Source: Candidatus Omnitrophota bacterium (GTDB lineage: Bacteria > Omnitrophota > Gorgyraeia > 2-01-FULL-45-10). Taken from it: a stretch of 64,000 nucleotides of DNA. Each line of letters begins with the position of its first letter. Within the stretch, counting starts at the first letter, position 1. Position numbers and translations under genes: made by a program. The stretch lies in assembly GCA_041650935.1 (NCBI GenBank), contig JBAZKH010000003.1:165269-229268 (forward strand), read 5' to 3'. The notes under the pieces are model-generated. The model did not search any database and had not been told where the DNA came from. It saw only the letters and a list, made by a program, of their open reading frames with translations. Of this stretch, positions 7,197 through 37,507 are shown piece by piece.

Positions 7197-8206
7197 TAGT
7201 TCTTTATCTCCCCGGCTAATTTCAATATAACGGCGTATACGCCTTTCACAACCCTGGATATGTTCCGGTAGTCCAATTTTTCGCACGTGTCCTCCTTTGT
7301 ATGCATCTTCGTATTGCGGTATATGCACGTGTCGGAAATCCAGACCGATTCATATCCGAATGTCCAGAAGGACCTGTTGTCAGAGGTCATGATCTGAGGC
7401 AAAAACGGCGCGGGCACAACCAGGTATTCCAGGGGCATATCAGAGGCCTTTTTAAATTCCCGGATGGTCGTCATTAATAGCCGGTACGATGCCGCGTCGC
7501 TCGTCATACCGATGAAGTTTCCTTTATCCGGATAGAAAGGCATCAAAACAAGCGGCCTGGCTTGAGAGCCGGGCTTATCGGAATAAAATCCCAGCATGTC
7601 GAGACATATTACACCCTCTATCCTCTCGCCTCTTTTTCTTGCCGCCTCGGCATATCTGTAACTGCCCATATCCTTATCCTGGACTACCAGCTCCAGTTCT
7701 TCGTTGGTAAAGGCTATGAATTTAACGGTCCGCTCCAGGCTGGTCCTTCGAATAAGCCGCGCAAGTTCAAGGACCGCGGCAACACCGGTAGCGTTATCGT
7801 CAGCGCCCGGCGAGACCCGGTGAGTATCGTAGTGACAGCAGACGATGATAACCTCATCTTTTTTGGCCGCGCCCGATTTGACTGCAATTATGTTCCGGAA
7901 AGACGCGCCCGGCGCAGGCACAACACTCATAGCATACACCTGCTCCGCCGGCTCATATCCGTATCTTTCGAATTCGGCTTTTATGTAATCCGCCGCGCGG
8001 TTTAAATTTTCATAGTGCGCCGGGTTCCTCGGGCCGATCTGCGCGGAGAGCATCTTTACGTGCTCCTCTATCTCCTCTTCGGCAAATAGGTTGAGAGCGG
8101 AAAAGGAGAGGGCCAGGAATAATAACGATATTCGTTTGGCCAAAAAATACGGCCTCGGTAAAATTCCCGGGGCCGCCATGCGGGGGGAACAAAATATGAC
8201 TGCCAT
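7196..8206 (-). CDS. M28-family zinc aminopeptidase (secreted)
   Basis: Signal peptide. M28 motifs CHYDT..GADDNATGVA and NEE(LE) metal ligands, plus a D..H C-terminal ligand region. Confidence 0.8.
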   Translation of the reverse strand: MAVIFCSPRMAAPGILPRPYFLAKRISLLFLALSFSALNLFAEEEIEEHVKMLSAQIGPRNPAHYENLNRAADYIKAEFERYGYEPAEQVYAMSVVPAPGASFRNIIAVKSGAAKKDEVIIVCCHYDTHRVSPGADDNATGVAAVLELARLIRRTSLERTVKFIAFTNEELELVVQDKDMGSYRYAEAARKRGERIEGVICLDMLGFYSDKPGSQARPLVLMPFYPDKGNFIGMTSDAASYRLLMTTIREFKKASDMPLEYLVVPAPFLPQIMTSDNRSFWTFGYESVWISDTCIYRNTKMHTKEDTCEKLDYRNISRVVKGVYAVILKLAGEIKN

Positions 8207-9690
8207 TACTTTACCTCTTCGCGGGGATGCTTTCTCATTATATCTTCCAGCCTATCTTTATATTTCAGGAAAGCGCCGCAAACTGCCGGATCGAACTGGG
8301 TGCCGGAATTCTTTTCTATCTCTTTTATCGCATCCTTGAAATCCATCTTCACTCTATAGGGCCTATCGGTCGTCATAGCATCGAAGGCGTCGGCAACGGC
8401 CACTATTCTGGCAAGAATAGGTATTTCATCACCTTTCAATCCTTCCGGGTAACCCTTCCCGTCATATCTTTCCTGATGATAAAGGACCACGTCCTTCACA
8501 TCCGTCAGAAAATCGATACCCTCTATTATCTTGGCGCCTCTTTGAGAATGCTTCTTAATCTCTTCGAAATCCTCTTTAGTAAGCTTATCTTTTTTAAGGA
8601 GAGCGCTATCGATATATATCTTGCCTATATCGTGTAAAAAACAGCTATAGCGCAGCTGCACTATCATCTCGTGGGGAAGATGCATGGCCTTTGCGATGAG
8701 GAGAGCATACTCCTGGACCCTGCTCACGTGCGTTTTCGTATAAGAGTCTCTTTCTTCGATCGCGTTCGTAAGGGCCACGACAGATTCGAGATGCGCCCTT
8801 CTCTCCCTTGCAAGCGACACCTGCAGTTCGCTTACCTTCTTTTTGATGGATATCCTCATCAATTCAAAGGCTCTTGCAAGGTGCCCTATCTCATCGTCTG
8901 TCTTTACATCGATCTCTTTATCGTAATGTTCTTTTTCGAGATCACCAACCGCTTCATCCAATTTTTTTATAGCGGCCACCAGGGCGGTGACAAGCTGATA
9001 ACTTATTAAAGCCACCATCAAAAATCCTATAACGCATATAGCTATTATGACCGCGAGCTCTTTGCGTAACAACATAAGGTACGAATCGATCCTATAGCTT
9101 ATTTCTACTATAATCCGTAATTCTTTCGACGGGAGTAACTCGCCGGGCGCATATGCCGATATCCATACCCCGTCTTTATCTTTGTAAATACCCGTAACCT
9201 GCGTCTGCCCGGAACGAAGGGCTTCTTTGATCTCCGGCTTTATCGTATAAGCCGTGCCCACTAAAAAAACCGGTTCGCTCGTCACGGCCATAAAAAGACG
9301 GTTCTCCGACGCGACATATATGTTTATGGGACTGTCAACATTGTTCGTCTCTTTTATACTGCGGAGCAGCGCCGAATATTTTTCATATACAGCCTTCGGA
9401 TCTCCCAATGACGTATCGGCGCCGGCAAGGCTTTTTTCCGAAGATGCCAGGGGCCGCTTGATATTTTCCGAATTTTCCAGAATGAACGAAATTATTTCCG
9501 AAGGCGTGACGGTCACTATTGTATTCGAAATGCTCCTGATGGAATCCTTAAGCATCATAACGATGCGGGATTTGGAGAACTGAAAGGAGAAGTAGCCTAA
9601 AGCGGCTGTGATCAGGAAGATACAAAAGAGATTTATGCCCAGTATCTTGACCTTAATACTATTTCTTGCTATATTTTTTTTCACGAGCAA
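8206..9690 (-). CDS. Membrane sensor with an HD-GYP c-di-GMP phosphodiesterase domain (periplasmic sensor, HAMP, HD-GYP)
   Basis: Two TM segments flank a roughly 170 aa periplasmic region. HD-GYP motifs HDIGK, HHERYDGKGYP and DAFDAMTTDRPY. The ORF-track start is TTG/GTG; the true start is uncertain by a few codons. Confidence 0.85.
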   Translation of the reverse strand: MLVKKNIARNSIKVKILGINLFCIFLITAALGYFSFQFSKSRIVMMLKDSIRSISNTIVTVTPSEIISFILENSENIKRPLASSEKSLAGADTSLGDPKAVYEKYSALLRSIKETNNVDSPINIYVASENRLFMAVTSEPVFLVGTAYTIKPEIKEALRSGQTQVTGIYKDKDGVWISAYAPGELLPSKELRIIVEISYRIDSYLMLLRKELAVIIAICVIGFLMVALISYQLVTALVAAIKKLDEAVGDLEKEHYDKEIDVKTDDEIGHLARAFELMRISIKKKVSELQVSLARERRAHLESVVALTNAIEERDSYTKTHVSRVQEYALLIAKAMHLPHEMIVQLRYSCFLHDIGKIYIDSALLKKDKLTKEDFEEIKKHSQRGAKIIEGIDFLTDVKDVVLYHQERYDGKGYPEGLKGDEIPILARIVAVADAFDAMTTDRPYRVKMDFKDAIKEIEKNSGTQFDPAVCGAFLKYKDRLEDIMRKHPREEVK

Positions 9691-23657: not shown

Positions 23658-24071
23658 TTATTCGCCGTATATAGCGGCGATTATCGCGCCTTCCAATGGA
23701 GTTATGACCAGCCCCAGTATCGTCCAGTAAATAACTACGGTAGTAGCAACATTCATGAATTCATAGGTAGCAAACATACCCCGCAGTGTCCCTACGGCCC
23801 ATACGCATAATCCGAAGACAAGCCCTTTTACGAATTTATTCTTTCCGGGGATGCCTTTATTTATCAGGGCATAAACAAACGCGACTATTATAGCCAGCGC
23901 AAGACTGCCTATCATATACATAACGCCCGGGGGACCGTCCATCTGCTTCCACACATTTGTCGGTTCCAGTTTATAGACCCAGTTAAAAATACCTCCGCAC
24001 GTCACTGCGCCCACGGCCATATTGAATATGGTCGCCGCTATCCCTGCTATCAATATCTTCCCTATCTTCAT
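23658..24071 (-). CDS. Small four-TM membrane protein (DUF1761-like)
   Basis: Hydrophobicity only. Confidence 0.35.
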   Translation of the reverse strand: MKIGKILIAGIAATIFNMAVGAVTCGGIFNWVYKLEPTNVWKQMDGPPGVMYMIGSLALAIIVAFVYALINKGIPGKNKFVKGLVFGLCVWAVGTLRGMFATYEFMNVATTVVIYWTILGLVITPLEGAIIAAIYGE

Positions 24072-24107
24072 TGCTCTGCCTCCTTTTATTTAAATCTCCT
24101 ACCCGGC

Positions 24108-24653
24108 TTAAATTATCTTCTTCTCCGGCGCGTAGAAAATTCTACCGCCCAGGTGGTGAAGAACCCTCGGGCCTCTCTTTTCCGGAAGCCATCTGTCCGA
24201 AAATAAGGAGCTCTCGGCCTCCGCATATACAACATCCCCCAGGACGATATTGTACTTCTTAAGAAGCGCCTTCTCCTTACGAAGCTTACACTCAAGTACG
24301 CCTATGGCGGACCCAAGGCGCGGCGACTTGACTTTTTTTGCCCGTTCTCTCACCAGTCCGAATTTCGCGAATTTGTCCACTTTCTCACCCGAGACACCGC
24401 CCAGGCCGCGGACCGTTTCGGCCATATCGCTCGATGGGATATTGATGACGAAATCGCCCGTCTCAAGGATGGCCTTATATATGAAATGTTTCTCCCATAT
24501 CTCCAGCGCGACTATCGGAGGATCGTCCGATACAGGCATATTCCACGCTATCGGGGTAAGTCCCGGCCTCCCGCCCGATATCGAGCTGACGAGGACGACG
24601 GGTCCGGAACCTATGAGCCTGTACGCAATTTTAAGTGGAACAGATTTTTTCAT
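24108..24653 (-). CDS. Flavin reductase-like FMN-binding domain protein
   Basis: PVVLVSSISGGRPGLTPIAWNMPVS is typical of the flavin_reduct family split-barrel. Confidence 0.7.
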   Translation of the reverse strand: MKKSVPLKIAYRLIGSGPVVLVSSISGGRPGLTPIAWNMPVSDDPPIVALEIWEKHFIYKAILETGDFVINIPSSDMAETVRGLGGVSGEKVDKFAKFGLVRERAKKVKSPRLGSAIGVLECKLRKEKALLKKYNIVLGDVVYAEAESSLFSDRWLPEKRGPRVLHHLGGRIFYAPEKKII

Positions 24654-24664
24654 AACCGCCTCTC

Positions 24665-24697
24665 ACCTATAAAAACGCCGGGGATGGATGCCCCCGG
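24665..24697 (-). terminator. Rho-independent terminator after the ABC-2 exporter genes
   Basis: Minus-strand GCCGGGGGCAUCCAUCCCCGGC stem-loop, followed by GUUUUUAUAGG. Confidence 0.6.
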
Positions 24698-24818
24698 CTT
24701 AAGTTAAGATGTTTTGATCCATACTATATGTATAGCCCTGTATTGCATGGCTGTCATTATAGCATCTGGTTATATTAATAGGTGAGTAAAATTTTGATAC
24801 GTGGAACCGGGAGGGTAA

Positions 24819-25622
24819 TCAGCTCAGGGTTTCGGCGCTGTAGCGGGCTATAAGGCCGGTGCGAAGAGTGCCTTTATAGACCTTGACGAATATCCAGTAA
24901 GACAGGAGGATGTATCCGCAGGCTAAAATAGCGCTCCACATAAGCCCGGCAACAGATACTCCCCTGCCCGCGACTATGGCGCGCAGGGCTTCGAAGACGT
25001 AAGAAGGCGGTAATATCCGGGAGACGGCCTGCATCCACTGCGGAAGCGTCGAGATCGGATACAGGACTCCCACGAATGGCGAGAGCAGCGCGGGGATCGG
25101 CCAGATGAACCATTCCGATGCCGGCCCGAAGCGCAGGACGATCGCACAGCCTAAGATGCCGATCGATATGCCGAAGAGAAAAAGTATCAGGATAAACGGC
25201 ATGGCCGCGCCTCCGTAAACGACGAGCGATAATTTGAAGCAGGCGGAGGCGATTAAGAGCATAATGGAAAGGCCGATGATGCTCGTAAATATGCTCGAAA
25301 GGATAAGGCCTCCGACGTATTCGGAGACGGAGAGAGGGGTTGCGAAGATATTCAGGAAATTACGCGCCCAGACGTCTTCGAAGAATGCCATAGTAACGCC
25401 CTGCATAATGCGGATAAAGAAGTCCCAGAAGATGACCGCCCCGAGAAGCACCGGCACAAAATTAAATCCCGTCGGCGAGACCTGATTTAAATACTGCGTA
25501 AGGAATCCCCACAGTATCATATCGACGGCTATCCAGGCAAATATCGGGAAGAAGCGGGCGGCGCTGCCGCGGATGAGATAGGCCTGGCGGAGCATTATGG
25601 CGAATATGCGGTTAAACGACAT
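24819..25622 (-). CDS. ABC-2 type transporter permease
   Basis: Six TM helices with an ABC-2 family profile. Overlaps the ATPase gene. Confidence 0.8.
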   Translation of the reverse strand: MSFNRIFAIMLRQAYLIRGSAARFFPIFAWIAVDMILWGFLTQYLNQVSPTGFNFVPVLLGAVIFWDFFIRIMQGVTMAFFEDVWARNFLNIFATPLSVSEYVGGLILSSIFTSIIGLSIMLLIASACFKLSLVVYGGAAMPFILILFLFGISIGILGCAIVLRFGPASEWFIWPIPALLSPFVGVLYPISTLPQWMQAVSRILPPSYVFEALRAIVAGRGVSVAGLMWSAILACGYILLSYWIFVKVYKGTLRTGLIARYSAETLS

Positions 25623-25625
25623 AAG

Positions 25626-26375
25626 CTAGCCGGCCTCCAGCGTAAGCGGTTCGCGGGCTACCGTTATGAAGAGCTCTTCCAGCGTCTTCTTGCCGTGCTG
25701 GGCGGGCAGTTTCTTCGGATCGCCGCCCAGGAGTATCCTGCCGTGCGACAGGAAGAGGACGCGATCGCATACTTCTTCGACTTCGTACATATTGTGCGAT
25801 GTCCAGAGAACGCCGCCGCCGGCCTTCTTCATGGAATCGCGGATCGAGGGGCGGATATCGCGCGCAGTGGCAGGGTCGAGCGACGCCGTCGGTTCGTCAA
25901 GCAGCAGGAGACGCGGGTTATTCAGCATCGCCTTGGCAAGGCCGACGCGCGTCTGCTCGCCCGAAGAGAGAACGCCGCATTTCTTATCCCTGAAGCGCTC
26001 CAGGTCGAAGTGACAGAGGACCTCTCCGATGCGCCCGGGTATATCCTTGACGCCGTAGAGCAGGCCGAATACGCGAAGGTTCTGGTATACGGTCAAGTTG
26101 CCCGGCAGCGGCGCGTAGACTGCCGCAAAATTCGTACAGCCCATCGCCCGGGACCGCTCGGCCGAAAGGTCTATGCCTCCTATATGTATGCTTCCGGCGT
26201 CGGGAGCGAGTACGCTCAGGATCATATTGATAGTGGTGGTCTTGCCCGCGCCGTTAGGACCGAGCAGTCCCACTATCTCATCCGGCGCAACGTCGAAAGA
26301 TATATCATCTACGGCGAGAATGCCGCCGTATGACTTGCGCAAGCCGTTCACGGAGAGCATCTTATTTTTTTTCAT
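25626..26375 (-). CDS. ABC transporter ATP-binding protein
   Basis: Walker A GPNGAGKTTT, signature LSSGEQ and Walker B LLLLDEP. Confidence 0.9.
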   Translation of the reverse strand: MKKNKMLSVNGLRKSYGGILAVDDISFDVAPDEIVGLLGPNGAGKTTTINMILSVLAPDAGSIHIGGIDLSAERSRAMGCTNFAAVYAPLPGNLTVYQNLRVFGLLYGVKDIPGRIGEVLCHFDLERFRDKKCGVLSSGEQTRVGLAKAMLNNPRLLLLDEPTASLDPATARDIRPSIRDSMKKAGGGVLWTSHNMYEVEEVCDRVLFLSHGRILLGGDPKKLPAQHGKKTLEELFITVAREPLTLEAG

Positions 26376-26397
26376 ATACGGATAATTTAGGGTAGGA

Positions 26398-26790
26398 TCA
26401 GATCTTGCTGGCTTTCTGCCCTCTTTTTTCCAGGATGCTGGCGAATTTCAGCGTTATAACAGACAGGTCCAGCGGTTTTACGGCGTAGTCCGTGGCGCCG
26501 AGTCTCATAGCTTCTTCGGCGACTTCGTCAGATACCCATGCGGAAATTACGAGTATATCCACCTTCGGATTTAATTCTTTCGCTTCTCTTATTACATCGA
26601 TACCGCTCTTCTTCGGCATCTTGATATCGAGGAGCATCACATCGCAGGGATTCGACCTGACAAATTTGACGGCTTCCTCGCCATCCGTAGCCTCCCTGAA
26701 TTTACAGTCAAACCTTTCTTCCAGGAAGTCCATAATCATGTTGCGGGCATTGACTTCATCATCGACGATCAATACAACGGGCTTATTCAT
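26398..26790 (-). CDS. Single-domain response regulator (REC only)
   Basis: VLIVDDE ... LLDIKMP ... K, a CheY-like receiver. Confidence 0.85.
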   Translation of the reverse strand: MNKPVVLIVDDEVNARNMIMDFLEERFDCKFREATDGEEAVKFVRSNPCDVMLLDIKMPKKSGIDVIREAKELNPKVDILVISAWVSDEVAEEAMRLGATDYAVKPLDLSVITLKFASILEKRGQKASKI

Positions 26791-27163
26791 GATCTTCCTT
26801 TAGTAATTCCTGCACTTTCTTTGTGACAACTTCCTCGAGATAATCTATCCTGAACGGCTTAGTTATGTATTCGTCGGCTCCAAGCTTTTTAGCCTGTTCA
26901 ATAATCTCTTCTTCGTTGTGGACGGTAAGCATTATCACTTTTATAGATGCATCCGTGTCTTTAATATGCTTAAGGGTCTCGAGGCCGCTCATGCCTCGCA
27001 TAGTAATGTCGAGAAAGACTATGCCCGGCTTGTCCTTCTTTATAACCTCCAGGGCCTCTTCTCCACTGCTAACAGCCTTGGCGGAAAAGCCTCTATGCTC
27101 GAAGAAGCTTTTGAGCGCGTCGGTTATGCCCTTTTCGTCGTCGACTATGAGGAGTTTTATCAT
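26783..27163 (-). CDS. Single-domain response regulator (REC only)
   Basis: LLIVDDEK ... FLDITMRGMSG ... ITKP. Confidence 0.85.
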   Translation of the reverse strand: MIKLLIVDDEKGITDALKSFFEHRGFSAKAVSSGEEALEVIKKDKPGIVFLDITMRGMSGLETLKHIKDTDASIKVIMLTVHNEEEIIEQAKKLGADEYITKPFRIDYLEEVVTKKVQELLKEDHE

Positions 27164-27238
27164 ACGTATTTATTCTTTAAGAATAATGTTAATGTTTCTT
27201 ACGGGGGTCACTTTTCTTGATCACATTTTAACTCTTAT

Positions 27239-28108
27239 TCATTTCCCCTTCCTCACCAACCCATGCATAAGACATTCTTTTGCAACAAAATCCACAAGTT
27301 TCCTGTTCGATACCCTGAACCCTTCGTCGTCCATCGAATTTTGGTTGCAGAACCTGATCCCCTCTCTCTCAAGCTCGCGTAATTCAAATTCTGTCTTGGG
27401 TATAAGGCCGTGCAGTATTACCGCCTTAGGCTTATGGCTCGATTTCATCATTAGGCCGGCAAGCTCCTTTGTATCATCCATACTGAAGAGCGAGTCATAC
27501 ATTATAACTATATCGGGCTGGTAATCATAGAGAAGGTTTAAGCCTTCCTTATCGCCATAGACTACCTTTGTCTCGTATTCACCCTCGATGATACCTGATG
27601 CGGCAAAGAAGCCGCAGGTAAAGCCGTATACCATAGGATTGGGCTCTATAAATAACAACCTGGCCTTGGGCACCTTCTTTGACTCAACTTCTTCTTTCTC
27701 TTTTGAAGGATAGACTCTTGTATCGTTATGCGAAGCATCTATAACGTAGCGGATCCTGTCGATGAGTTTCGATAGGTCTATGGGTTTTGCGAAGAAGCCG
27801 TCTATGCCAAGCTTTTCGACTTCCTGCTTAACCTCACTATCATAAGCGGTCATTATGATAACTTTGGCCTTGGAGGCAGTTTTGCGGATATGTTTCAATA
27901 TCTGGATACCGTCAACGCCGGGCATCCTGACGTCCAGAAGTATGAGATCCAGGTTTTTGATAGAATCTATGACATTCAAAGCCTCTTTTCCGTCGAGCGC
28001 CGTGAGCATGTCGTAACCCAGAGCCGAAAAGAAGCCCTTTAAACTCATAGTTACTTCTTTTTCGTCATCGACTACCAGTATCACGCCTTTTTCATTATCG
28101 TCGTTCAT
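27239..28108 (-). CDS. Response regulator: N-terminal REC plus a C-terminal receiver-like (pseudo-receiver) domain
   Basis: N-terminal VILVVDDEKE...LLDVRMPGVDG...KP. The C-terminal 150 aa (LLFIEPNP...DIVIMYD...AVILHG) has a receiver-like beta-alpha pattern but lacks the acidic pocket. Confidence 0.7.
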   Translation of the reverse strand: MNDDNEKGVILVVDDEKEVTMSLKGFFSALGYDMLTALDGKEALNVIDSIKNLDLILLDVRMPGVDGIQILKHIRKTASKAKVIIMTAYDSEVKQEVEKLGIDGFFAKPIDLSKLIDRIRYVIDASHNDTRVYPSKEKEEVESKKVPKARLLFIEPNPMVYGFTCGFFAASGIIEGEYETKVVYGDKEGLNLLYDYQPDIVIMYDSLFSMDDTKELAGLMMKSSHKPKAVILHGLIPKTEFELRELEREGIRFCNQNSMDDEGFRVSNRKLVDFVAKECLMHGLVRKGK

Positions 28109-28264
28109 TAATTCCCCCGTCTCCTTTAGCGTAATCTTTCTTGATTTCTTTAAAAGTTTATTTATTATATGTTATTAGCTCTTAATAATAATTATAGACA
28201 CGCCTTAATAACATATGTAAAGCAGGTAAATTAAAGTATACCTCACTATTTAGGGAAAAACAAG

Positions 28265-28318
28265 CTAACCGGAATAAAAAATCCGGCATAAAAAATGCCA
28301 CGGTCAATCTGTGGCGGT
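28265..28318 (-). terminator. Tandem rho-independent terminators downstream of the 225 aa secreted-protein gene
   Basis: Minus strand: GCCACAGAUUGACCGUGGC + AUUUUUUAUG, then CCGGAUUUUUUAUUCCGG + UUAGCUUGUUUUU. Confidence 0.6.
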
Positions 28319-28347
28319 ATCTTCCCCGATATCCATAAGGCAAGGAA

Positions 28348-29025
28348 TTAGTCCTTGTTTTTTATGGCTTCTGTTTTCCCGAGTTTCTCTTCAATTTTTT
28401 GTTTTACCTTTATCGCCCTCGGCTTTATCTTTTCCGGCCGCGGGCTGCCGATAATTTCTTCGACAAATGACAGCGACTCAGGCGAAGCCAAATGGTACAG
28501 GGCATTTAAAAACGTCATCTTCATAGGGTAGCTCTGTCCGGGGTTTTTCCTGTACGCGCTATCTATCTTCCTGTACTGTTCGATTATCCAGGGCACGGCG
28601 CGCTTATCGCCCAATATCGCATATAGGACGGCTCTTCTTTCCGGTTGACTTATGGCACAGCCGGCCAGGTACTCATAAGCGCCCGGCCACCGGTAATAGG
28701 CCAATGTTTCCGCGGCGGCGCGCCTGTTTATCTCTAACCTGGATTTTAAGAATTTCGGGAGCACAGCCCACACCATTTTCCTGGACGCTTCATTCTCTTT
28801 GTCTATTTTACCTATTGCCGCAGGTGACGCGAAATATTCATAGCCCAGTACAAAATAGTTAGCCCTGCTGGAAAGACAAGAGATATCCTCGCTGCAATCT
28901 TTATCGATATCCGTAGCGGCGAGCTTCCCAAGATAAAGCTCCCGGGGCTCGGTGCATTCACCGGCAAAGGATGCCGACGTGATAAACAGAAGAAAAGATA
29001 CAAAAAATAGGCCGGCTGATTTCAT
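28348..29025 (-). CDS. Secreted alpha-helical (HEAT/TPR-like) protein of unknown function
   Basis: Signal peptide, with a Cys-containing N-terminal region. No recognisable catalytic motif. Confidence 0.4.
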   Translation of the reverse strand: MKSAGLFFVSFLLFITSASFAGECTEPRELYLGKLAATDIDKDCSEDISCLSSRANYFVLGYEYFASPAAIGKIDKENEASRKMVWAVLPKFLKSRLEINRRAAAETLAYYRWPGAYEYLAGCAISQPERRAVLYAILGDKRAVPWIIEQYRKIDSAYRKNPGQSYPMKMTFLNALYHLASPESLSFVEEIIGSPRPEKIKPRAIKVKQKIEEKLGKTEAIKNKD

Positions 29026-29126
29026 AAAAGCGGATAACCCTTGCCGTGAATTTCATAATATAAGGATATAGTGTTTAGTTTTGCATCAGGCATAAAGAAA
29101 GGCTCTTTCCTGTCAATAAACGCGAA

Positions 29127-29276
29127 TTATTTAATTAAAAGTATTGCAATAACCAAAACTAACATTGAAGCTATCCCCCAAAGGGACCACTTTATCCTGG
29201 ATATCTGTTTATCGGCATGCGCTATCCAGCTATGCATCTCCTTCAATTCATGTAGAATATGTTCTTCCTGACTCAT
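29127..29276 (-). CDS. Possible 49 aa tail-anchored small protein (MSQEEHILHELKEMHSWIAHADKQISRIKWSLWGIASMLVLVIAILLIK)
   Basis: ATG-initiated ORF below the 60 aa cutoff of the ORF track, with a C-terminal TM helix. No homology recognised. Confidence 0.2.
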   Translation of the reverse strand: MSQEEHILHELKEMHSWIAHADKQISRIKWSLWGIASMLVLVIAILLIK

Positions 29277-29294
29277 GATACGCCCCCCCAATTC

Positions 29295-29558
29295 TTAACT
29301 GTCTTTACTACTCTTGCCTATCTCTTTATTCAGAAAAAAACTTATAACAGTCCTTATTGCCACCATCGATCCCAGAACTGCCAATTCCTGGAGCGAAGGC
29401 CTTATCAGGGTGCGCCCCGCGAAAGAGTTGTCCCCTAAAAATCTTTTTAATTCCACGGAACAAAGATCGATTGCCGATATGAGAGAGCCCCAGACTATAA
29501 CAATTACTCCGAAAGATCCTATACCTAACGATATGGCATCAACTATCTGCATAAGCAC
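29295..29558 (-). CDS. Small two-TM membrane protein
   Basis: 87 aa and hydrophobic. Its 3' end overlaps a 65 nt repeat also found at 36771..36837. Confidence 0.35.
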   Translation of the reverse strand: MLMQIVDAISLGIGSFGVIVIVWGSLISAIDLCSVELKRFLGDNSFAGRTLIRPSLQELAVLGSMVAIRTVISFFLNKEIGKSSKDS

Positions 29559-29836
29559 ACGTCCGAGTCATACTCCAAATACGCTTCAATCTCCTTCTGA
29601 ATATCACCGTACTGGGTATAAAACTCATCATTCTTTTCCCTTTTTGCGTTTGCGAGATTGCTGTTTGCCATAATTTTGAGTGATTTTGGATATTAAAAAA
29701 AGGCGCTAGAGCTGATCTAACGCCGTAAAGTGCTGTGAATTTTCCCGCTACTATTGCCCATCTAAATACCTCAAGTTAAGGATATTATTATAGCACCTGA
29801 TCATATTATGGGGCAAGAATTACCTTGACAAAAATC

Positions 29837-29864
29837 TTGACAAAAATACGCTGTATGGTATATT
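29837..29864 (+). promoter_or_regulatory. Strong sigma70-type promoter for the YhcG-like gene
   Basis: TTGACA (29837..29842; an identical TTGACA occurs 12 bp upstream) - 16 nt spacer - extended -10 TGgTATATT (29856..29864). The downstream RBS AGGAGGAGGA lies 3 nt before the ATG at 29965. Confidence 0.6.
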
Positions 29865-29964
29865 GAGTTTGCGTCTGTAATAGGATATTAGATCCTGCTT
29901 GAATCTTTAAAAGATTCGGGCGGGATTTTTTGTTTTTATACCTTAATTACAGAAGGAGGAGGAT

Positions 29965-30984
29965 ATGGGAAAGCGGTTAATGCGTTCGAATGGGATTTAC
30001 AATAGGCTTCGCAAAATCATCGAAAATGCCAGAGGCAATATCGCTCATGCCGTAAATGCCGAGATGGTTACGGCATATTGGCATATAGGTAAGGAAATTG
30101 TTGATGCGGAGCAGAGAGGCGAGCGAAGGGCCGGCTATGGAGAAAAATTGATTCTGGCGCTTTCGCGCCGTTTATCGAACGAATTCGGTAACGGTTTCAA
30201 CGCAAGTAATTTATGGAATATGCGCCAGTTTTATCATACTTATCCAATTCTCTACGCACTGCGTAGAGAATTGAGCTGGACGCATTACCGCATCCTAATG
30301 CGTATCGACAATCCCGATGCCCGGTCTTTTTACGAGATAGAATGTAAGAATAATAAGTGGTCATCCCGTGAATTGGAGCGTCAGGTTGGGTCTTTTCTTT
30401 ACGAACGCCTCGCATTAAGTAAAGACAAAAAGGGCCTTATGGAATTGGCCCGCAAGGGCCAGGAACTGCAAACGTATAAGGATATGATAAAAGATCCATA
30501 TGTTCTGGAATTTACAGGGCTGTCTGCTGATCCAAAACTTTATGAAAGTAAGCTAGAACAAGCGCTTATTGATAACTTATCGAAGTTCTTACTCGAATTA
30601 GGCAAGGGTTTCACCTTCGTTGCCAGGCAAAAACGGATTTCGCTGGATGGCGATCATTTTTACATCGACCTGGTATTCTATAATACCATCCTTAAATGCT
30701 ATGTGCTCGTCGACCTAAAGATTGGTAAGCTTACTCATAAAGATATAGGTCAAATGCAGATGTATGTCAACTATTACGACCGCGAGCTTAAAGAGCCAAG
30801 CGACAATCCAACTGTTGGTCTTATCCTGTGCGAGCGCAAAAAGGAAGCGGTTGTCCGCTACACCCTTCCTCAAAACAACAAGCAGATATTTGCTTCGAGA
30901 TATAAACTGTATTTACCGACTAAAAAAGAACTGGCGAGAGAATTAAAAAAATTAACCAAAATCTATCCGATAGGGCATTTCTGA
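29965..30984 (+). CDS. YhcG/DUF1016-family PDDEXK nuclease-fold protein
   Basis: N-terminal helical domain (RLRKIIENARGNIAHAVNAEMVTAYWHIGKEIV, NLWNMRQFY) and a C-terminal PD-(D/E)xK core (FYIDLVFYN...VLVDLKIGKL). GC content is clearly lower than in neighbouring genes. Confidence 0.75.
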   Translation: MGKRLMRSNGIYNRLRKIIENARGNIAHAVNAEMVTAYWHIGKEIVDAEQRGERRAGYGEKLILALSRRLSNEFGNGFNASNLWNMRQFYHTYPILYALRRELSWTHYRILMRIDNPDARSFYEIECKNNKWSSRELERQVGSFLYERLALSKDKKGLMELARKGQELQTYKDMIKDPYVLEFTGLSADPKLYESKLEQALIDNLSKFLLELGKGFTFVARQKRISLDGDHFYIDLVFYNTILKCYVLVDLKIGKLTHKDIGQMQMYVNYYDRELKEPSDNPTVGLILCERKKEAVVRYTLPQNNKQIFASRYKLYLPTKKELARELKKLTKIYPIGHF

Positions 30985-31273
30985 TGGTTCGGCAGGCTCA
31001 CCACAAATATTTTGGGTCATTGGGCGAAAGTATCAAAAATGCCTCGAGGGTAGCTTTTAGCTATATTGTATAATTGCCCCTGATCAATAAAAATATTTTC
31101 CATTTATTATTTGTTGCCGCGGAAATTATATTACTTATTTCTTTGAATCCATTCCCACGCTTCCTTTGGAAGCATGCCCTGGCTCGCATAAAGATTTATT
31201 TATGAAGCTCTCCGGCCTAAAGGCCGGAGTTTCCATTCGCCTGTTGGCGGAATCCTCCGAAACAGAAAACCCC

Positions 31274-31313
31274 GAGCTTGAAAGCTCGGGGTTTTCTGCG
31301 AAGGAGGATAAAA
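31274..31313 (+). repeat. 40 nt exact repeat, copy 1 (hairpin + T-run + AAGGAGG)
   Basis: GAGCTTGAAAGCTCGGGGTTTTCTGCGAAGGAGGATAAAA is identical to 47363..47402. Here it sits in a longer AAAACCCCGAGCTT/AAGCTCGGGGTTTT bidirectional terminator-like hairpin. Confidence 0.8.
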
Positions 31314-31356
31314 CTGCGCTGAGATTGACTAAATTTGGCGGAGAGATAGGGATTCG
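31308..31356. repeat. 49 nt direct repeat (att-like), distal copy; contains the 3' terminal 22 nt of tRNA-Ser(GGA) plus 27 nt of trailer
   Basis: ATAAAACTGCGCTGAGATTGACTAAATTTGGCGGAGAGATAGGGATTCG is identical to 31469..31517, which overlaps the tRNA 3' end. Confidence 0.85.
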
Positions 31357-31468
31357 GCTATCCGCCTCGCAGAGCTCGGCTCCTAGCCAGCCAATTTTCT
31401 GTCGGGCATAGCCCTTTTCCTCCCATAAGGTCGGCGAAAATTGGCTTCGAATCCCCAGTGCTTTGCCT
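31357..31468. mobile_element. 112 bp structured insert between att-like repeats at tRNA-Ser(GGA) (miniature integrative/CIME-like element)
   Basis: Flanked by a 49 nt direct repeat that includes the tRNA 3' end. It shares an architecture with the 147 bp insert at tRNA-Ser(TGA) and the two stems show compensatory changes (10 bp stem GCCAATTTTC/GAAAATTGGC; inner GGGC-ATA-GCCC). Confidence 0.5.
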
Positions 31469-31496
31469 AATAAAACTGCGCTGAGATTGACTAAAT

Positions 31497-31588
31497 TTGG
31501 CGGAGAGATAGGGATTCGAACCCTAGGACAGCCTTTCAGCCGTCATACGCTCTCCAAGCGTACGCATTCAACCGCTCTGCCATCTCTC
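31497..31588 (-). tRNA. tRNA-Ser (anticodon GGA), type II with long variable arm, CCA encoded
   Basis: Reverse complement: GGAGAGATGGCAGAGCGGTTGAATGCGTACGCTTGGAGAGCGTATGACGGCTGAAAGGCTGTCCTAGGGTTCGAATCCCTATCTCTCCGCCA. The 7 bp acceptor, 3 bp D stem, TTCGAAT T-loop and 19 nt variable arm all fold cleanly. Anticodon loop uuGGAga. Confidence 0.9.
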
Positions 31589-31671
31589 CAATTTGCAATA
31601 TTCTAACTCGGGCAAATTGTCCCGAGCATATGTCATTTTACTCGTGATGCGAGGGACTACCACAAACTATC

Positions 31672-32904
31672 CTACTTCTTTCCCGCAAACCCCTTCACCA
31701 GCACCGTGTGGAGTTTCTCGTTCAATACGAAATTTTCCGTCCGCCAGGAGAAGGTCATCCTCCCCTTCTCCCTCGGCCATAGACTAGCGAACGTCTCGAG
31801 ACCGATCGCCGGCCCCTGGCGGTTCACCCACGGCGGATTATCGACATACCTGTAAATACCGTCGGGGAACGCGTAATTCGCTATGGTCTTGTACGTCCAG
31901 TATGTCCAGTGTATGTCGTTGGCGTTGTATATGCCGACCATATCCGCGACCCACTTCACCTCGCCGTAGTGGCCGTCACGCGCGTTCACGCCGAATTCGC
32001 CCATATATAGCGGCACTTTATTAAAATCGGCGAACATCTTATACGGCCGCGCCAGCATCTCGAAACGCGCCTTGTCCCAGACGACATTGTAAACTTTGCC
32101 GGGATAGACTAAACCCATCTTAAGGTTGTGCGTAAAATCGAACGGCGCGTAGGTGTGGATGCTGTAGACTGTGTTAGGATCCTCGGGTTTACCCAGGAAC
32201 GCCAGCCGCTGGGCCCAGAAATTACCCTCGAGGAATATTATATGCGACTTATCGGCGTCGCGGATCTCTTTCGTAACCCTCCTGTACAGGTCCTTCAGCG
32301 AGCCTTCCTTGTGGAACGGGACGACCGCTTCGTTCAGCACATCGTAACCGGCGACTGCGCTCGAATCCTTATAAAGCTCCGCCAGGAAATGCCACAAACG
32401 CAGGTAACGGTCGATATTAAATTCGTTGGTGAAAAAATCCGGCTTGCCGTTCGAGTCGGAATGCCATCCCGGGTTCTGCGAACCCGGCGCCGCGTGCAGA
32501 TCGAGTATGCAGTATATGCCGTGTTTCTCGCACCACCCGACAGCCTTATTGAGATAATCGAGACCCTCCTCGTTCAGGCTGAAGGGCCGGTCCTCGAATT
32601 CTATAAGCCTGTAGTTGAACGGTATCCTTACGCAATTCGCGCCCCAGCTCTTTATCGTCGCTATATCTTCCTCACGGATGAATGTATCGCGGAACGAACG
32701 GGTAAAGTCCTCCAGAGCATCCTTGCCCAGCGCCCGCGCGAAACCTTCCCTGAATGCCCCCTCCGGTATGTTGCGGCCGCCCAGCATGTAACCTTCCATC
32801 ATCAGCCAGCCGCCGAGGTTGACGCCTCTCAGCCTGACGGGCTTGCCGGTCCCGTCGACGATCCTGGTGCCCTTAACCAATAACTTCGGTAATCTTCCGC
32901 GCAT
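31672..32904 (-). CDS. Glycoside hydrolase family 5 (cellulase-like)
   Basis: CVRIPF, LDLHAAPGSQN, VLNEA (acid/base Glu) and YMGEFG (nucleophile Glu) in the canonical GH5 order. Confidence 0.75.
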   Translation of the reverse strand: MRGRLPKLLVKGTRIVDGTGKPVRLRGVNLGGWLMMEGYMLGGRNIPEGAFREGFARALGKDALEDFTRSFRDTFIREEDIATIKSWGANCVRIPFNYRLIEFEDRPFSLNEEGLDYLNKAVGWCEKHGIYCILDLHAAPGSQNPGWHSDSNGKPDFFTNEFNIDRYLRLWHFLAELYKDSSAVAGYDVLNEAVVPFHKEGSLKDLYRRVTKEIRDADKSHIIFLEGNFWAQRLAFLGKPEDPNTVYSIHTYAPFDFTHNLKMGLVYPGKVYNVVWDKARFEMLARPYKMFADFNKVPLYMGEFGVNARDGHYGEVKWVADMVGIYNANDIHWTYWTYKTIANYAFPDGIYRYVDNPPWVNRQGPAIGLETFASLWPREKGRMTFSWRTENFVLNEKLHTVLVKGFAGKK

Positions 32905-36837: not shown

Positions 36838-36848
36838 GGTCTTTTGAC

Positions 36849-36998
36849 ATGTACCTGAGACAAAACCGAAGGTTTTGTCGAATGGTTCAGGGCTGTGCCA
36901 TGTACCCAGCACCACTCGCTTCGCTCGGGTGCTGGGCGAAGCCCGAGCGTTTGCCCTGTACCACCTGTAAGCAAACGCGAGTGGTACATGGCGGAGAG
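36849..36998. repeat. About 150 bp structured direct repeat R, copy 1, abutting the 3' end of tRNA-Ser(CGA)
   Basis: Near-identical to 37199..37340. Contains hairpins GACAAAACC-GAA-GGTTTTGTC and CCCAGCACC..GGTGCTGGG and TGTACCAC..GTGGTACA, plus alternative pairings ACCACTCGC/GCGAGTGGT and GCGTTTGC/GCAAACGC. Confidence 0.8.
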
Positions 36999-37088
36999 GG
37001 AGAGATTCGAACTCTCGTACCCCGTAAAGAGTAACACGCTTTCGAGGCGTGCACCTTCAACCACTCGGTCACCTCTCCACACAAATTT
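36999..37088 (-). tRNA. tRNA-Ser (anticodon CGA), type II, CCA encoded
   Basis: Reverse complement: GGAGAGGTGACCGAGTGGTTGAAGGTGCACGCCTCGAAAGCGTGTTACTCTTTACGGGGTACGAGAGTTCGAATCTCTCCCTCTCCGCCA. Anticodon loop cuCGAaa, long variable arm. Confidence 0.9.
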
Positions 37089-37198
37089 ATCTCTATATTG
37101 CTCTGCTTCGCGCTTCGTAAGGAGCATTCTGCCCGCACAATTCCTGCGAAGCCTGAGCGTTTGCCCTGTACCAGTCGCAAAAAATCAACATGGCTGTG

Positions 37199-37340
37199 CC
37201 ATGAACCTGAGACAAAACCGAAGGTTTTATCGAGTGGTTCATGGCTGTGCCATGTACCCAGCACCACTCGCTTCGCTCGGGTGCTGGGCGAAGCCCGAGC
37301 GTTTGCCCTGTACCACCTGTAAGCAAACGCGAGTGGTACA
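37199..37340. repeat. About 150 bp structured direct repeat R, copy 2, abutting a 20 nt 3'-fragment of tRNA-Ser(TGA)
   Basis: See copy 1; only a few mismatches over about 140 nt. Confidence 0.8.
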
Positions 37341-37360
37341 TGGCGGAGGAGGTAGGATTC
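37341..37360. repeat. 20 nt direct repeat (att-like) identical to the 3' end of tRNA-Ser(TGA)
   Basis: TGGCGGAGGAGGTAGGATTC is identical to 37508..37527 inside the tRNA. Confidence 0.85.
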
Positions 37361-37507
37361 CCCTCCGCTCGGCATAGCCTCGCTCCGGGCCAGCCGAATT
37401 TGCTTTCGGCCGTAGGCCTTTTCCTCCTACTCGTCGGCGCAAATTCGGCTTCGAATCCTTCCCAAGCGCGAGTAATATAAAGCCGAGTAAAATTGAGTAT
37501 ATAATAC
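37361..37507. mobile_element. 147 bp structured insert between att-like repeats at tRNA-Ser(TGA), homologous to the insert at 31357..31468
   Basis: Has 11 bp stem GCCGAATTTGC/GCAAATTCGGC and an inner GGCC-GTA-GGCC hairpin. Shares the single-stranded CCTTTTCCTCC and GTCGGCG..GGCTTCGAATCC blocks with the other insert. Three compensatory base-pair changes occur between the two copies. Confidence 0.5.

Follow-up and report, generated by a model that had tools for sequence, protein, structure and literature searches.

We found that a 144-nt repeat, R, lying beside the tRNA-Ser genes of the window (the 64,000-nt stretch of Candidatus Omnitrophota DNA analyzed here) belongs to a family of modular hairpin elements that, with few exceptions, begin exactly after the CCA end of a tRNA-like gene. 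The family has apparently not been described before and is, as far as we have seen, confined to Candidatus Omnitrophota. In the window R is two copies of a two-unit composite, a unit a of 99 nt followed by a unit b of about 50 nt. Comparison of orthologous sites in related genomes shows the units to be dispensable, coming and going, and R behaves like a dispensable, site-specific selfish repeat. With slightly more belief than doubt, we read it as a non-autonomous, CCA-end-targeted nested-hairpin repeat that resembles the single-strand elements of the IS200/IS605-REP type and is passively co-transcribed; a functional 3'-trailer RNA is a serious rival.

A repeat search and recount located a 164-nt direct repeat (36845-37008 and 37197-37360) with 154 of 164 positions identical. 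Twenty of the 164 nucleotides are tRNA 3' end and hold five of the ten differences, and in the remaining 144 nt, the element proper, the copies R1 and R2 agree at 139 positions, including all of the first 98. Both copies are on the minus strand. R1 starts at the base directly after the CCA of tRNA-Ser(CGA), which is encoded at 36989-36991 and forms the left junction, and R2 starts directly after a 20-nt duplicate of the tRNA-Ser(UGA) 3' end, whose CCA likewise forms the left junction (Table 1). The initial annotation had placed two copies, differing at few positions over about 140 nt, at these sites, and ARAGORN, Rfam and the repeat search confirm it. It had also described the repeat as better conserved than the tRNAs it follows, and this holds: tRNA-Ser(CGA) and tRNA-Ser(UGA) are identical at 67 of 90 positions (74%), versus 139 of 144 for R. 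Since unit a is identical over 98 nt despite tRNAs this diverged, R1 and R2 point to recent copying, so that of the two causes proposed earlier in place of passive co-duplication, function or recent copying, the second accounts for the high identity; gene conversion may lie behind it.

Table 1. Features of the tRNA-Ser region of the window.
Feature	Position	Strand	Basis
tRNA-Ser(UGA), intact	37508..37597	-	ARAGORN; Rfam
45-nt spacer and element E (E core about 37361-37462)	37361..37507	-	Homologs; consensus fold
20-nt duplicate of tRNA-Ser(UGA) 3' end, from T-loop (GAATCC) to CCA	37341..37360	-	Sequence comparison
R2 unit a, 99 nt, GCCA at end	37242..37340	-	Covariance model match, 40 bits
R2 unit b, 51 nt, TGAACCACTCG...GGTTCATGGCACAGCCA, intact, stacked on the GCCA of unit a	37191..37241	-	Fold; comparison
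Partial third unit, TGTTGATTTTTTGCGAC TGGTACAGGGCAAACGCTCAGGCTTCGC, 3' half of C/D hairpin plus B'	37146..37190	-	Repeat search; shuffles
Remnant of the 'F' tRNA-trailer family, GGCTTCGCAGGAAT...GCAGAATGCTCC	37121..37153	-	By-eye comparison with L021 and L037 trailers
tRNA-Ser(CGA)	36989..37078	-	ARAGORN; Rfam tRNA, 57.7 bits
R1 unit a, 99 nt, TGTACC...GGCACAGCCC	36890..36988	-	Covariance model match, 37 bits; fold
R1 unit b, degenerate short hairpin, TGAACCATTCG-AAAACC TTCG GGTTTT-CTCAGGTACATGTCA	36845..36889	-	Stacked on end of unit a

Unit a of R1 is a family variant that lacks the C/D hairpin and has an extra 'E-module' hairpin, and b-type units are also present at loci outside the window. 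A third occurrence of a 28-nt core, at 37146-37173 and unmatched in 100 shuffles, falls within the partial third unit, a module that also follows copies at loci L012 and L045; its T-run, with the small hairpin preceding it, is the sole terminator-like site in this region. The two R copies lie in direct orientation, 352 bp apart, with identity peaking next to the tRNA, which is the arrangement expected of a mere local duplication of tRNA plus trailer, kept uniform by gene conversion and having no wider family or function. As a complete explanation, this is refuted by the 44 further copies that we recovered beyond the window, in metagenome and Omnitrophota MAG contigs, at other tRNAs and at tmRNA genes. 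Neither copy is present at the orthologous loci of relatives, and we consider local duplication scarcely credible.

These further copies came from the wider search that the initial annotation had proposed. A metagenome scan with a motif lacking CCA gave 41 loci, which together with four loci in Omnitrophota MAGs and the window make 46 copies, a sample biased toward that motif because all copies were found through it. An 18-mer genome scan returned about as many matches as expected by chance, only the four Omnitrophota matches being real, and no similar DNA was found in the E. coli genomes, plasmids, phages and viral contigs searched. A covariance model found no further full copy in the 384 kb of DNA scanned, and the literature on tRNA-associated repeats, MITEs and Omnitrophota held no description of such an element.

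In 43 of the 46 copies the first base directly follows (+1) the CCA of a tRNA, tmRNA or tRNA remnant; by left flank, 29 follow a complete tRNA, 4 a tmRNA gene, 7 an E-type element with a tRNA 3' fragment and 3 other tRNA remnants, while 3 are at non-tRNA sites, one of them at the last codon of an ORF. Copies following tRNA fragments and a bare minihelix are part of the family. The junction CA/TG is present in every copy (46/46) and CCA in 43/46, though the search motif held no CCA. With 43 of 46 copies abutting a tRNA-like CCA end, R is no generic repeat dispersed over non-tRNA sites. The tRNAs followed by R represent 12 amino-acid types and at least 19 anticodon types, and a minority of tRNAs carry it. 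One copy (L044) is part of a 16S-23S operon, with tRNA-Ile and tRNA-Ala on either side of it and the 23S rRNA downstream. Sequence 3' of R is unrelated between loci.

The tRNA fragment before R2 comes from element E, not from R. E is a separate structured insertion that parts tRNA-Ser(UGA) from a duplicate of its own 3' end; it has one homolog in the window at 31361-31454 and others at L023, L038, L030, L049 and L060, and 17 of 37 pairs in its consensus fold are compensatory. The E insertion would be the older of the two, with R2 on its far side. E shares the duplication from T-loop to 3' end that is typical of tRNA-targeting islands and prophages, and R shares with them the class of target gene, including tmRNA. 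This overlap with classical island targets, together with the duplicated tRNA 3' segment directly before R2 and, in one relative (L056), a gene for a large serine recombinase next to the orthologous tRNA-Ser(UGA), would suit an att-type site or the remnant of a tRNA-integrated island left by a tyrosine or serine recombinase, and the initial annotation had named a recombination site among its options. However, the duplicated segment belongs to E, whereas R begins after the gene, duplicates nothing and holds no genes; R1 and 32 other copies follow intact genes (33 in all) without duplication. The window itself carries no recombinase gene, at least 19 anticodon types are more than any single att specificity can account for, and compensatory changes in stems do not characterize double-stranded att sites. 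We regard an att site as very improbable.

The junctions reveal a simple grammar. Each unit opens with TG right after the A of a CCA end and closes in GCCA, and the CCA ahead of a unit is that of a tRNA, a tmRNA, a tRNA remnant or the GCCA closing another unit. At L025, L039, L045 and L049, as in the window, a terminal GCCA is directly followed by stacked b units or other trailer modules, and at L014, L017, L032, L034, L042 and L047 b units are inserted within other units; units are truncated in places, and modules have been lost between internal GGTACA repeats. Of the three copies at non-tRNA sites, the two whose flank is not CCA, with ACA (L020) and TCA (L049), still close in GCCA, and no target-site duplication was seen, a result that comes from few informative cases (L020, L049 and the filled and empty tmRNA sites). 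Such units, beginning right after CCA, ending in CCA and stacked head to tail on GCCA, are also what an RNA intermediate might leave. A reverse transcriptase would copy the R transcript from its 3' minihelix and GCCA and template-switch from the R 5' end to the CCA-3' of a mature tRNA, tmRNA or other R RNA, and the cDNA would recombine into the tRNA locus. The Neurospora Mauriceville retroplasmid, which acquired tRNA sequences, offers a parallel. tmRNA and tRNA have little in common beyond their mature 3' structure, and some copies are joined to tRNA 3' fragments that begin near T-loop position 57/58, both of which fit this route. Against it, a Pfam scan of 57 window ORFs found no reverse transcriptase (nor any transposase or integrase), three copies follow sequences that are not stable RNAs, and the cDNA would have to recombine on both sides to integrate. 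The junction gives no RNA signature, since every one of the inspected tRNA and tmRNA genes (76/76) encodes its CCA. We consider an RNA intermediate improbable.

Orthologous sites with and without R indicate that the units are dispensable. Among tmRNA loci, L032, L035, L039 and L047 carry R and L033 lacks it, the insertion falling exactly after CCA; apart from the element, filled and empty sites do not differ. In nine loci of relatives with an 85-87% identical SerRS (P0003, P0004, P0006, P0007, P0010 and P0013 were compared), the orthologous tRNA-Ser(UGA) and tRNA-Ser(CGA) are without R. Locus L060 matches the window for spacer, E and tRNA fragment, with a different hairpin in place of R2, and the orthologous tRNA-Ser(GGA) is followed by R in L025 and by none in the window. 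Genomes with the same gene order differ in which tRNA carries R.

The initial annotation had described the window copies as highly structured, and the structure of R is conserved across the family. Both strands fold far better than shuffled sequence (z-scores -5.0, -8.2 and -5.2), and in the family alignment the proportion of paired cells is 98.5%, versus 93% for shuffles and 26-46% for slid controls. Four helices (A, B/B', C and P0), two of them mutually exclusive, have undergone compensatory changes, and position 6 covaries with both alternative partners, indicating that both conformers are kept. The alternative pairings named earlier are present and conserved. The D hairpin has at least 10 different stems. 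The left hairpin (TGTACCAC/GTGGTACA) has a core sequence in common with the hairpins on the right side (CTGTACC/GGTACAG or CTGCACC/GGTGCAG), but it begins right at the junction, leaving no linker in which a guide sequence could lie. The left arm of an inverted repeat, CCATGTACC...GGTACATGG, takes in the flanking CCA, so that this CCA and the first six bases of R are complementary to the internal GGTACATGG, and the right tip of R, an 11-nt tail (TGGCACAGCCA), lies outside the repeat.

These features also underlie the main rival, in which R is a functional 3'-trailer RNA transcribed with its tRNA or tmRNA: P0 would pair the CCA end and A release it, and R would control or direct 3' maturation, protect the precursor, or yield a stable small RNA after cleavage at CCA. 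R abuts the CCA exactly, helix P0 takes in the tRNA CCA, both conformers are maintained, and RNAalifold alone predicts the P0, B and C fold. Between genomes whose proteins share only 25-65% identity the core sequence of R is still 85-96% identical, a conservation that fits strong functional constraint and also recognition by an enzyme that is itself conserved. Because R occurs in an rRNA operon spacer and after tmRNA genes, it is certainly transcribed. In the trailers of other tRNAs a stem starts at +1 or +2 in 15 of 39 cases (shuffle mean 4.2), and a CCA-abutting hairpin could have a role in these organisms. However, only a minority of tRNAs bear R, the same tRNA-Ser genes lack it in relatives, and the R-bearing tRNA varies among genomes of the same gene order. 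Copies at tRNA fragments, at a bare minihelix and at three non-tRNA sites, and units that are stacked, nested and partial, are likewise difficult for a trailer function. In a test of RNA-level versus DNA-level selection, unique arm variants included 15 G.T and 10 A.C mismatches and showed no clear RNA-type bias, G.U not being in clear excess. Though a serious rival, a functional trailer RNA is in our judgment unlikely.

Other structured-RNA candidates were rejected. Rfam 15 at gathering thresholds reached only tRNA, rRNA, tmRNA and RNase P and assigned neither R nor E to a family; relaxing the cutoff to E ≤ 1-10 brought up no credible match over either element, HDV-like, hatchet and rtT models included, and matches to sX4 (34 and 26 bits, threshold 70) were driven by the tRNA. 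HDV-like ribozymes cleave at their own 5' end, and cleavage at the position of R would release a CCA-ended tRNA; the R strand order A-B-A'-hairpin-B' also matches the HDV-like P1-P2-P1'-P4-P2'. However, only 4-6 nt separate B from A', leaving no room for P3/L3, there is no J4/2 strand for the catalytic C, and the first base of R is U where HDV-like ribozymes have G. An intrinsic terminator is ruled out by the copy inside the rRNA operon; canonical units have no T tract, a T-run occurring only in the extra module after R2. The attenuator or switchable RNA suggested by the initial annotation found no support, as stable-RNA genes precede R, the sequence after it is unrelated, and one copy is in an rRNA operon.

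The closest likeness is to known single-strand elements. IS200/IS605 elements, their non-autonomous derivatives (PATEs) and the REP/BIME sequences moved by RAYT (TnpA-REP) insert 3' of a short fixed left-flank sequence, in one orientation, without duplication and with subterminal hairpins, and in IS200/IS605 and REP the active strand is on the lagging-strand template and stems are kept by compensatory change (PMC3201880, PMC5934647, PMC5027513, PMC6006769). R shares with this group a fixed left flank, strict orientation, absence of target duplication and of terminal inverted repeats, compensatory stems, and many short non-coding copies in clusters and mosaics. It differs in that no Y1 enzyme is linked to it, its target is the CCA end of tRNA-like genes rather than any occurrence of a tetranucleotide, its left hairpin starts at the junction where IS608 has a linker for the guide sequence, and its units are larger and modular with long-range or pseudoknot-type B/B' pairing. 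REPs are scattered through intergenic DNA at hundreds of sites; R occurs almost exclusively at tRNA ends.

MITEs have inverted repeats at their very tips and target duplications of 2-10 bp (PMC11602168). Correia/NEMIS, ERIC, RUP and BOX elements resemble R in being short, non-coding, multi-copy and co-transcribed with their neighbors, with long hairpins, but R has its 11-nt tail beyond the inverted repeat and no target duplication at L020, L049 and the tmRNA loci. At E. coli tyrT, 178-bp downstream repeats that each start with the last 19 nt of tRNA-Tyr give rtT RNA (Rfam RF00391). Like E, the tRNA fragment and R in the window, they form a tRNA operon trailer that includes a copy of the tRNA 3' end and is processed from the tRNA transcript; however, they arose by local tandem duplication at one locus in one lineage, have no sequence or structural similarity to R, and contain a tRNA segment that R itself lacks. 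Structured RNAs also lie directly downstream of tRNAs in 3'ETS-leuZ of E. coli and the TMERs of MHV68, which are single loci with defined targets. Their 5' ends, like that of R, would arise by tRNA 3' processing, whereas R is multi-copy and patchily distributed, with nested and truncated copies.

If R is a mobile CCA-end-targeted repeat, as we favor, a putative enzyme acting in trans would insert new copies into a folded single strand, on the 3' side of a CCA that lies exposed beside a stem, as in the 'peel and paste' of the HUH Y1 enzymes of IS200/IS605 and REP/RAYT. Pairing of the CCA and first six bases with the internal complement could be the target-reading step, and the inserted element would be co-transcribed with the tRNA and cleared by normal 3' processing. 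The tRNA sense strand is probably the lagging-strand template in the window, as the minus strand bears 57 of 61 ORFs and the plus-strand GC skew is negative throughout; gene orientation and skew fit this template, although R orientation is tied to that of the tRNA gene and is therefore not independent. A Y1 transposase search of about 480 kb of DNA with an approximate IS608 TnpA query, a weak test, gave no match, and a search for orphan right ends far from left ends, the sign of an autonomous or cargo version, found none. A trinucleotide target alone cannot explain the restriction to tRNA-like ends, which counts against the mobile reading.

A bolder proposal, which we offer tentatively as a possibility we lean against, is that R, the b hairpins and the 'F'/AATT +1 trailers form a new mobile class that reads a folded tRNA-like 3' end (a stem with an exposed CCA) as its insertion site, through a putative dedicated enzyme or an RNA intermediate. 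The GCCA closing each unit would regenerate the target, making the class a prokaryotic counterpart of eukaryotic tRNA-targeted elements. To our knowledge, based on the literature and databases searched, there is no known bacterial repeat family whose start coincides exactly with the CCA end of whichever tRNA-like gene it follows. If R is mobile, it would represent a new kind of target choice, by structure plus CCA, and would point to an enzyme worth finding in an uncultivated phylum that could become a tool for defined safe-site insertion. If it acts as an RNA, it would be a structured motif, new and widespread, that is linked to the 3' maturation of tRNA and tmRNA.

On either reading, R elements put repeats in tRNA and rRNA operons, may explain contig breaks at tRNA loci in Omnitrophota assemblies, and create spurious ORFs. 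In the window, overlapping ORFs of 160-162 aa (36887-37375, minus strand; 36895-37377, plus strand) span a tRNA gene plus the repeat and match elsewhere only other copies of it, which makes them the artefacts that the initial annotation had taken them for. Taken overall, that annotation was right on recent copying, structure, alternative pairings and ORF artefacts, and its attenuator reading found no support. The two-unit composite, the phylum-wide modular family, the tmRNA sites, the R-less orthologs in relatives and the origin of the tRNA fragment in E were not part of it. The spacer upstream of tRNA-Ser(CGA) also holds the 'F' remnant, which belongs to a trailer family different from R.

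The two copies of repeat R in the window, R1 behind tRNA-Ser(CGA) and R2 behind a short duplicate of the 3' end of tRNA-Ser(UGA), were recovered by repeat search as a 164-nt match, of which a recount found 154 positions identical. The non-tRNA part is identical at 139 of 144 positions, without interruption over the first 98, while the tRNAs share 67 of 90, bearing out the initial annotation's claim that the two-copy repeat is better conserved than its tRNAs. The overlapping ORFs it had dismissed as artefacts (160-162 aa) indeed span a tRNA gene and match other R copies only. Folding of R surpasses that of shuffled sequence by far on both strands (z = -5.0 to -8.2), and each copy is composite: a 99-nt unit a precedes a short hairpin, unit b, that has decayed in R1 and is whole in R2 (51 nt, with a terminal GCCA). 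The window's seryl-tRNA synthetase (SerRS) is 100% identical to MFA5143618.1, a serine--tRNA ligase from Candidatus Omnitrophota bacterium; Omnitrophota are an uncultivated phylum in which ultra-small cells predominate (PMC10066038).

Positions of the window features around R, in minus-strand order, and of elements E and F (tRNA-linked structured insertion and second tRNA-trailer family)
Feature	Locus	Position	Strand	Remark
Archease	window	41120-41536	minus	first in order
RtcB	window	39615-41063	minus	
SerRS	window	38321-39604	minus	
ORF218, 218-aa membrane ORF	window	37671-38327	minus	HExxH motif
tRNA-Ser(UGA)	window	37508-37597	minus	
E, 147 nt	window	37361-37507	minus	
Copy of tRNA-Ser(UGA) 3' end, 20 nt	window	37341-37360	minus	
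R2	window	37197-37340	minus	then patchwork spacer
tRNA-Ser(CGA)	window	36989-37078	minus	
R1	window	36845-36988	minus	then end of convergent MFS gene
E	window	31358-31469		
Duplicated tRNA-Ser(GGA) 3' end, 48 nt	window	31310-31357 / 31470-31517		includes trailer
E	L023	3728-3868		
E	L038	1833-1976		
E	L030	328-489		
E	L049	1647-1771		
E	L060	4541-4705		
F	window	37121-37153		
F	L003	1673-		
F	L004	3476-		
F	L007	1172-		
F	L014, L021, L037, L039			
F	L025	4914-		

Scans of genome and metagenome collections yielded a family of 46 copies, window included. A first scan with an 18-mer from the R core, against one genome per species, returned ten loci, about the chance expectation; four were Omnitrophota MAGs, and all four matches fall in an R-like element directly after a tRNA-type CCA, preceded by an intact tRNA in three and by a tRNA 3' fragment in L003. 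A second scan, of a metagenome collection with a degenerate motif from the 5' hairpin that deliberately excluded the CCA, gave 41 loci, two of them chance matches lacking the rest of the element. The total includes near-duplicate loci (L007/L013/L043, L038/L048, L030/L041) and, since all copies outside the window were found via one 5' motif (the four MAGs via one 18-mer), leaves divergent subfamilies and motif-less copies unseen. The assignment to Omnitrophota follows four MAG titles and the names of SerRS relatives, most metagenome contigs being taxonomically unlabelled. A covariance model built from 15 copies detected no additional complete copy in the 384 kb searched; the family was not found in E. 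coli genomes, plasmids, phages or viral contigs, the comparison with Rfam 15 that had also been suggested gave no family, and no description appeared in the literature searched. That R is a purely local duplication, as its paired occurrence in the window might suggest, is very hard to credit beside these dispersed copies.

A complete tRNA lies directly upstream of 29 copies (Lys, Leu, Val, Ala, Met, Pro, Ser, Cys, Ile, Gly, Arg), a tmRNA gene of four, an E-type element with a tRNA 3' fragment of seven, and another tRNA remnant of three, in one case (L028) just an acceptor-like minihelix of 7 bp that ends in ACCA; the last three copies lie away from any tRNA-like sequence. At least 19 anticodons are followed by R, fragment cases included. 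R starts at the base after CCA in every tRNA and tmRNA case, and the junction is CA/TG in 46/46 copies. Spread through an RNA intermediate, with template switching at CCA-3' ends, we think improbable. In L028 the minihelix (GGGGAGA-GGATAT-TCTCCCC-ACCA, ~740-765, minus) replaces the tRNA, upstream of a tRNA-Val(CAC) that bears a second, nearly identical R.

In tRNA sense and directly after CCA, the canonical unit reads TGTACCAC TC GCGTTTGCC TGTAG GTGGTACA T GCCCTGTACC (hairpin D) GGTACAGGGC AAACGC TCGG (optional extra hairpin) GTACATGG CACAGCCA. TGTACCAC and GTGGTACA together form helix A, which is excluded by helix P0; the latter takes in the tRNA's CCA by pairing CCA plus TGTACC with GGTACATGG. 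Helix B/B' joins GCGTTTGC, in the loop of A, to GCAAACGC, and is nested with P0 while forming a pseudoknot with A; helix C surrounds the variable hairpin D. The 5'-end pairing noted earlier, ACCACTCGC with GCGAGTGGT, was found again, the 5' end in the window variant pairing with GCGAGTGGTGCTGG. Among 28 distinct copies, standard pairs occupy 98.5% of cells versus 93% after shuffling and 26-46% with partners slid, although the relatedness of the sequences means that shuffle counts in the pairing and covariation tests cannot be read as probabilities. Position 15-87 of B/B' is C-G (16), G-C (5), U-A (5) or U-G (2), helix C shows double changes at four pairs, and position 6 covaries with each of its two partners, in A and in P0, indicating that both helices are maintained. 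RNAalifold predicted the P0, B and C fold unguided. Hairpin D has at least ten different stems, with a C-GAA-G closure and tandem G.A flanks in nearly all. The window copies and L009 represent a variant without C/D, lost between two GGTACA repeats with the optional extra hairpin retained, and minimal versions of ~45-50 nt occur in L012, L016, L022 and L027.

Comparison of orthologous sites points to gain and loss. Five related tmRNA loci have identical gene ends; R directly follows the CCA in four and is absent from L033, where it sits on the neighbouring tRNA-Leu(CAG) instead. Relatives with a SerRS 85-87% identical to that of the window supplied nine orthologous loci. Each has the order (archease-)RtcB-SerRS-ORF218-tRNA-Ser(UGA), and none contains an R copy; in three, tRNA-Ser(CGA) ends as in the window and unrelated sequence then follows. 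L060 and the window have in common a 45-nt spacer, E and the 20-nt fragment, with a ATTTTTGCC...GCAAAAAT hairpin after the fragment's CCA in L060 at the place of R2, and L057 retains the spacer and a truncated E. E therefore goes back further than the divergence of these lineages, and R was either gained more recently in the lineage of the window or lost elsewhere. Similarly, tRNA-Ser(GGA), whose upstream genes are 65% identical between the window and L025, bears R in L025 and not in the window, and the tRNA cluster Arg-Leu-Lys-Gly, itself conserved, has R behind Lys in L004 and behind Leu in L007, L013 and L043.

Units are also stacked and nested. Exactly after a unit's terminal GCCA begin unit b (window, L039, L049), an F-type hairpin (L025) or the module TGTTGATTTTTTGCG (window, L012, L045); short b hairpins lie inside other units in L014, L017, L032, L034, L042 and L047, and one b is nested in another in the L035 trailer. 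Of the three copies away from tRNA-like ends, the one in L016 follows the last codon (CCA) of a 152-aa ORF, the element's first three bases (TGA) supplying the stop. The other two stand behind ACA (L020) and TCA (L049) and nevertheless have GCCA at their far end, which makes the terminal CCA the element's own and not a duplicated target. An att-site origin for this repeat at tRNA 3' ends appears very unlikely. L044 has R between tRNA-Ile and tRNA-Ala within a 16S-23S-5S operon, where it must be transcribed without terminating transcription. This copy led us to reject a terminator, and the position of R downstream of stable-RNA genes the attenuator proposed in the initial annotation; an HDV-like ribozyme was likewise rejected, as P3/L3 and J4/2 are missing and Rfam comparisons at threshold and permissive settings gave no ribozyme match.

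We lean towards R being a dispensable, copied, CCA-targeted repeat. Its main alternative, a functional 3'-trailer RNA, seems to us possible but distinctly less likely. As would be expected of such an RNA, a conserved helix engages the CCA in competition with another helix that is also conserved, and R is 85-96% identical between genomes whose proteins share 25-65%; the patchy distribution, the orthologous sites without R, the copies on tRNA remnants and non-tRNA sites, and the stacking of partial units all speak against it. Trailers in general also bear on this alternative: among 39 tRNA/tmRNA trailers without R (L003-L051 and the window; stems of at least 6 bp), the 5' arm of a stem starts 1-2 nt after CCA in 15 (shuffle mean 4.2, maximum 10), hinting at a general rule. 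Stem counts are 12, 12 and 8 at offsets 0-2 and 2-4 at offsets 3-8, and CCA-abutting hairpins seem to be a general habit of these genomes. The mobile-repeat and trailer-RNA readings are compatible with each other, as REP sequences show.

R combines a position 3' of a short fixed sequence, a single orientation, the lack of a target duplication, ends that hairpins with a common core (TGTACC/GGTACA) appear to define, stacking on a regenerated target, nesting and mosaic clusters, and stems kept by compensation. Such combined features are the signature of single-strand 'peel and paste' IS200/IS605 elements and of RAYT-moved REPs (PMC3201880, PMC5934647, PMC5027513, PMC6006769). Because R combines the features of that signature, we suggest that it may be a non-autonomous element working in a peel-and-paste manner, mobilised as in IS200/IS605 or REP-RAYT systems. 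Its limitation to tRNA-like ends would arise if insertion requires a CCA left exposed next to a stable stem when the single strand folds, with the internal TGG of GGTACATGG as candidate reader of the CCA. We hold an HUH-type mechanism specifically with about half the confidence given to the copied repeat itself, and would liken R to IS200/IS605 and REP in behaviour only, without filing it as a member of either. No mobilising enzyme was found among the 57 window ORFs examined or with a loose probe on the DNA of the collected loci.

Selection on a structured RNA normally leaves a clear excess of G.U. In helices A-C, the unique arm variants contain 15 G.T and 10 A.C mismatches, a ratio close to the neutral-transition 1:1 that gives no RNA signature and is not decisive. 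R folds equally well on either strand. In single-stranded DNA, C-GAA-G loops and tandem G.A pairs are known for their high stability; on the other side, unit b of the window has a C-UUCG-G loop, typical of RNA.

Element E is a conserved insert of ~100 nt, flanked by an intact tRNA on one side and by a second copy of that tRNA's 3' end on the other. With the fragment it folds into a three-way junction, closed by a helix between the 5' end of E and the fragment's T-loop and T-stem; in 17 of the 37 predicted pairs both bases vary among six sequences, a loop contains the conserved AGGAGGAAAAGG, and no Rfam family matches. An E 90% identical, with a tRNA-His fragment, lies behind tRNA-Arg in L049. 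Family F starts at +1 after CCA, as T(T/C)CTGCTTCGC ... GCTTCGCAGGAAT ... GCAGAATGCTCC, with inserted hairpins in its loop; in the window, a 3' half of it is found within the spacer that precedes tRNA-Ser(CGA). Repeats of ~110 nt whose opening 12 nt are those of tRNA-Lys (GCCCGCATAGCT), and which from there on bear no relation to the tRNA, are 5'-fragment repeats, the counterpart of E's 3'-fragment repeats: three lie upstream of tRNA-Lys in L007 (1530-1830, minus) and one in L004 (3540-3660).

The co-oriented block from archease to tRNA-Ser(UGA) (37671-41536), including the RtcB RNA ligase, is conserved across Omnitrophota relatives; among L052-L060, a DUF4139 gene replaces archease in L059 and several RtcB proteins carry an intein (989-995 aa). 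L055 and L056 have identical SerRS. In L056, a large serine recombinase gene (Resolvase, Recombinase and Zn ribbon; 6938-8482, minus) is called over and just beyond tRNA-Ser(UGA); in L055 no gene is called there, and the first ~200 nt after the tRNA, the extent of the comparison, are identical. Some sequence comparisons among loci were made by eye.

Of the 61 long ORFs in the whole window, 57 lie on the minus strand, and GC skew on the plus strand stays below zero in each 8-kb bin. The window seems to fall within a single replichore with genes almost fully co-oriented, and on these grounds the lagging-strand template is probably the tRNA sense strand. Just downstream of tRNA-Ser(GGA)/E, the seldom-used plus strand carries an unknown ORF and a gene for a YhcG/DUF1016 PDDEXK nuclease (29314-30984), which may be a small island beside the tRNA; the 8-kb bin 24001-32000 has the lowest GC in the window (0.47). 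Inside ORF 28348-29025, TGCCCTGTACCATTTGGCTTCGCC (28482-28505, minus) matches two R pieces, GCCCTGTACC and GGCTTCGCC, probably by chance.
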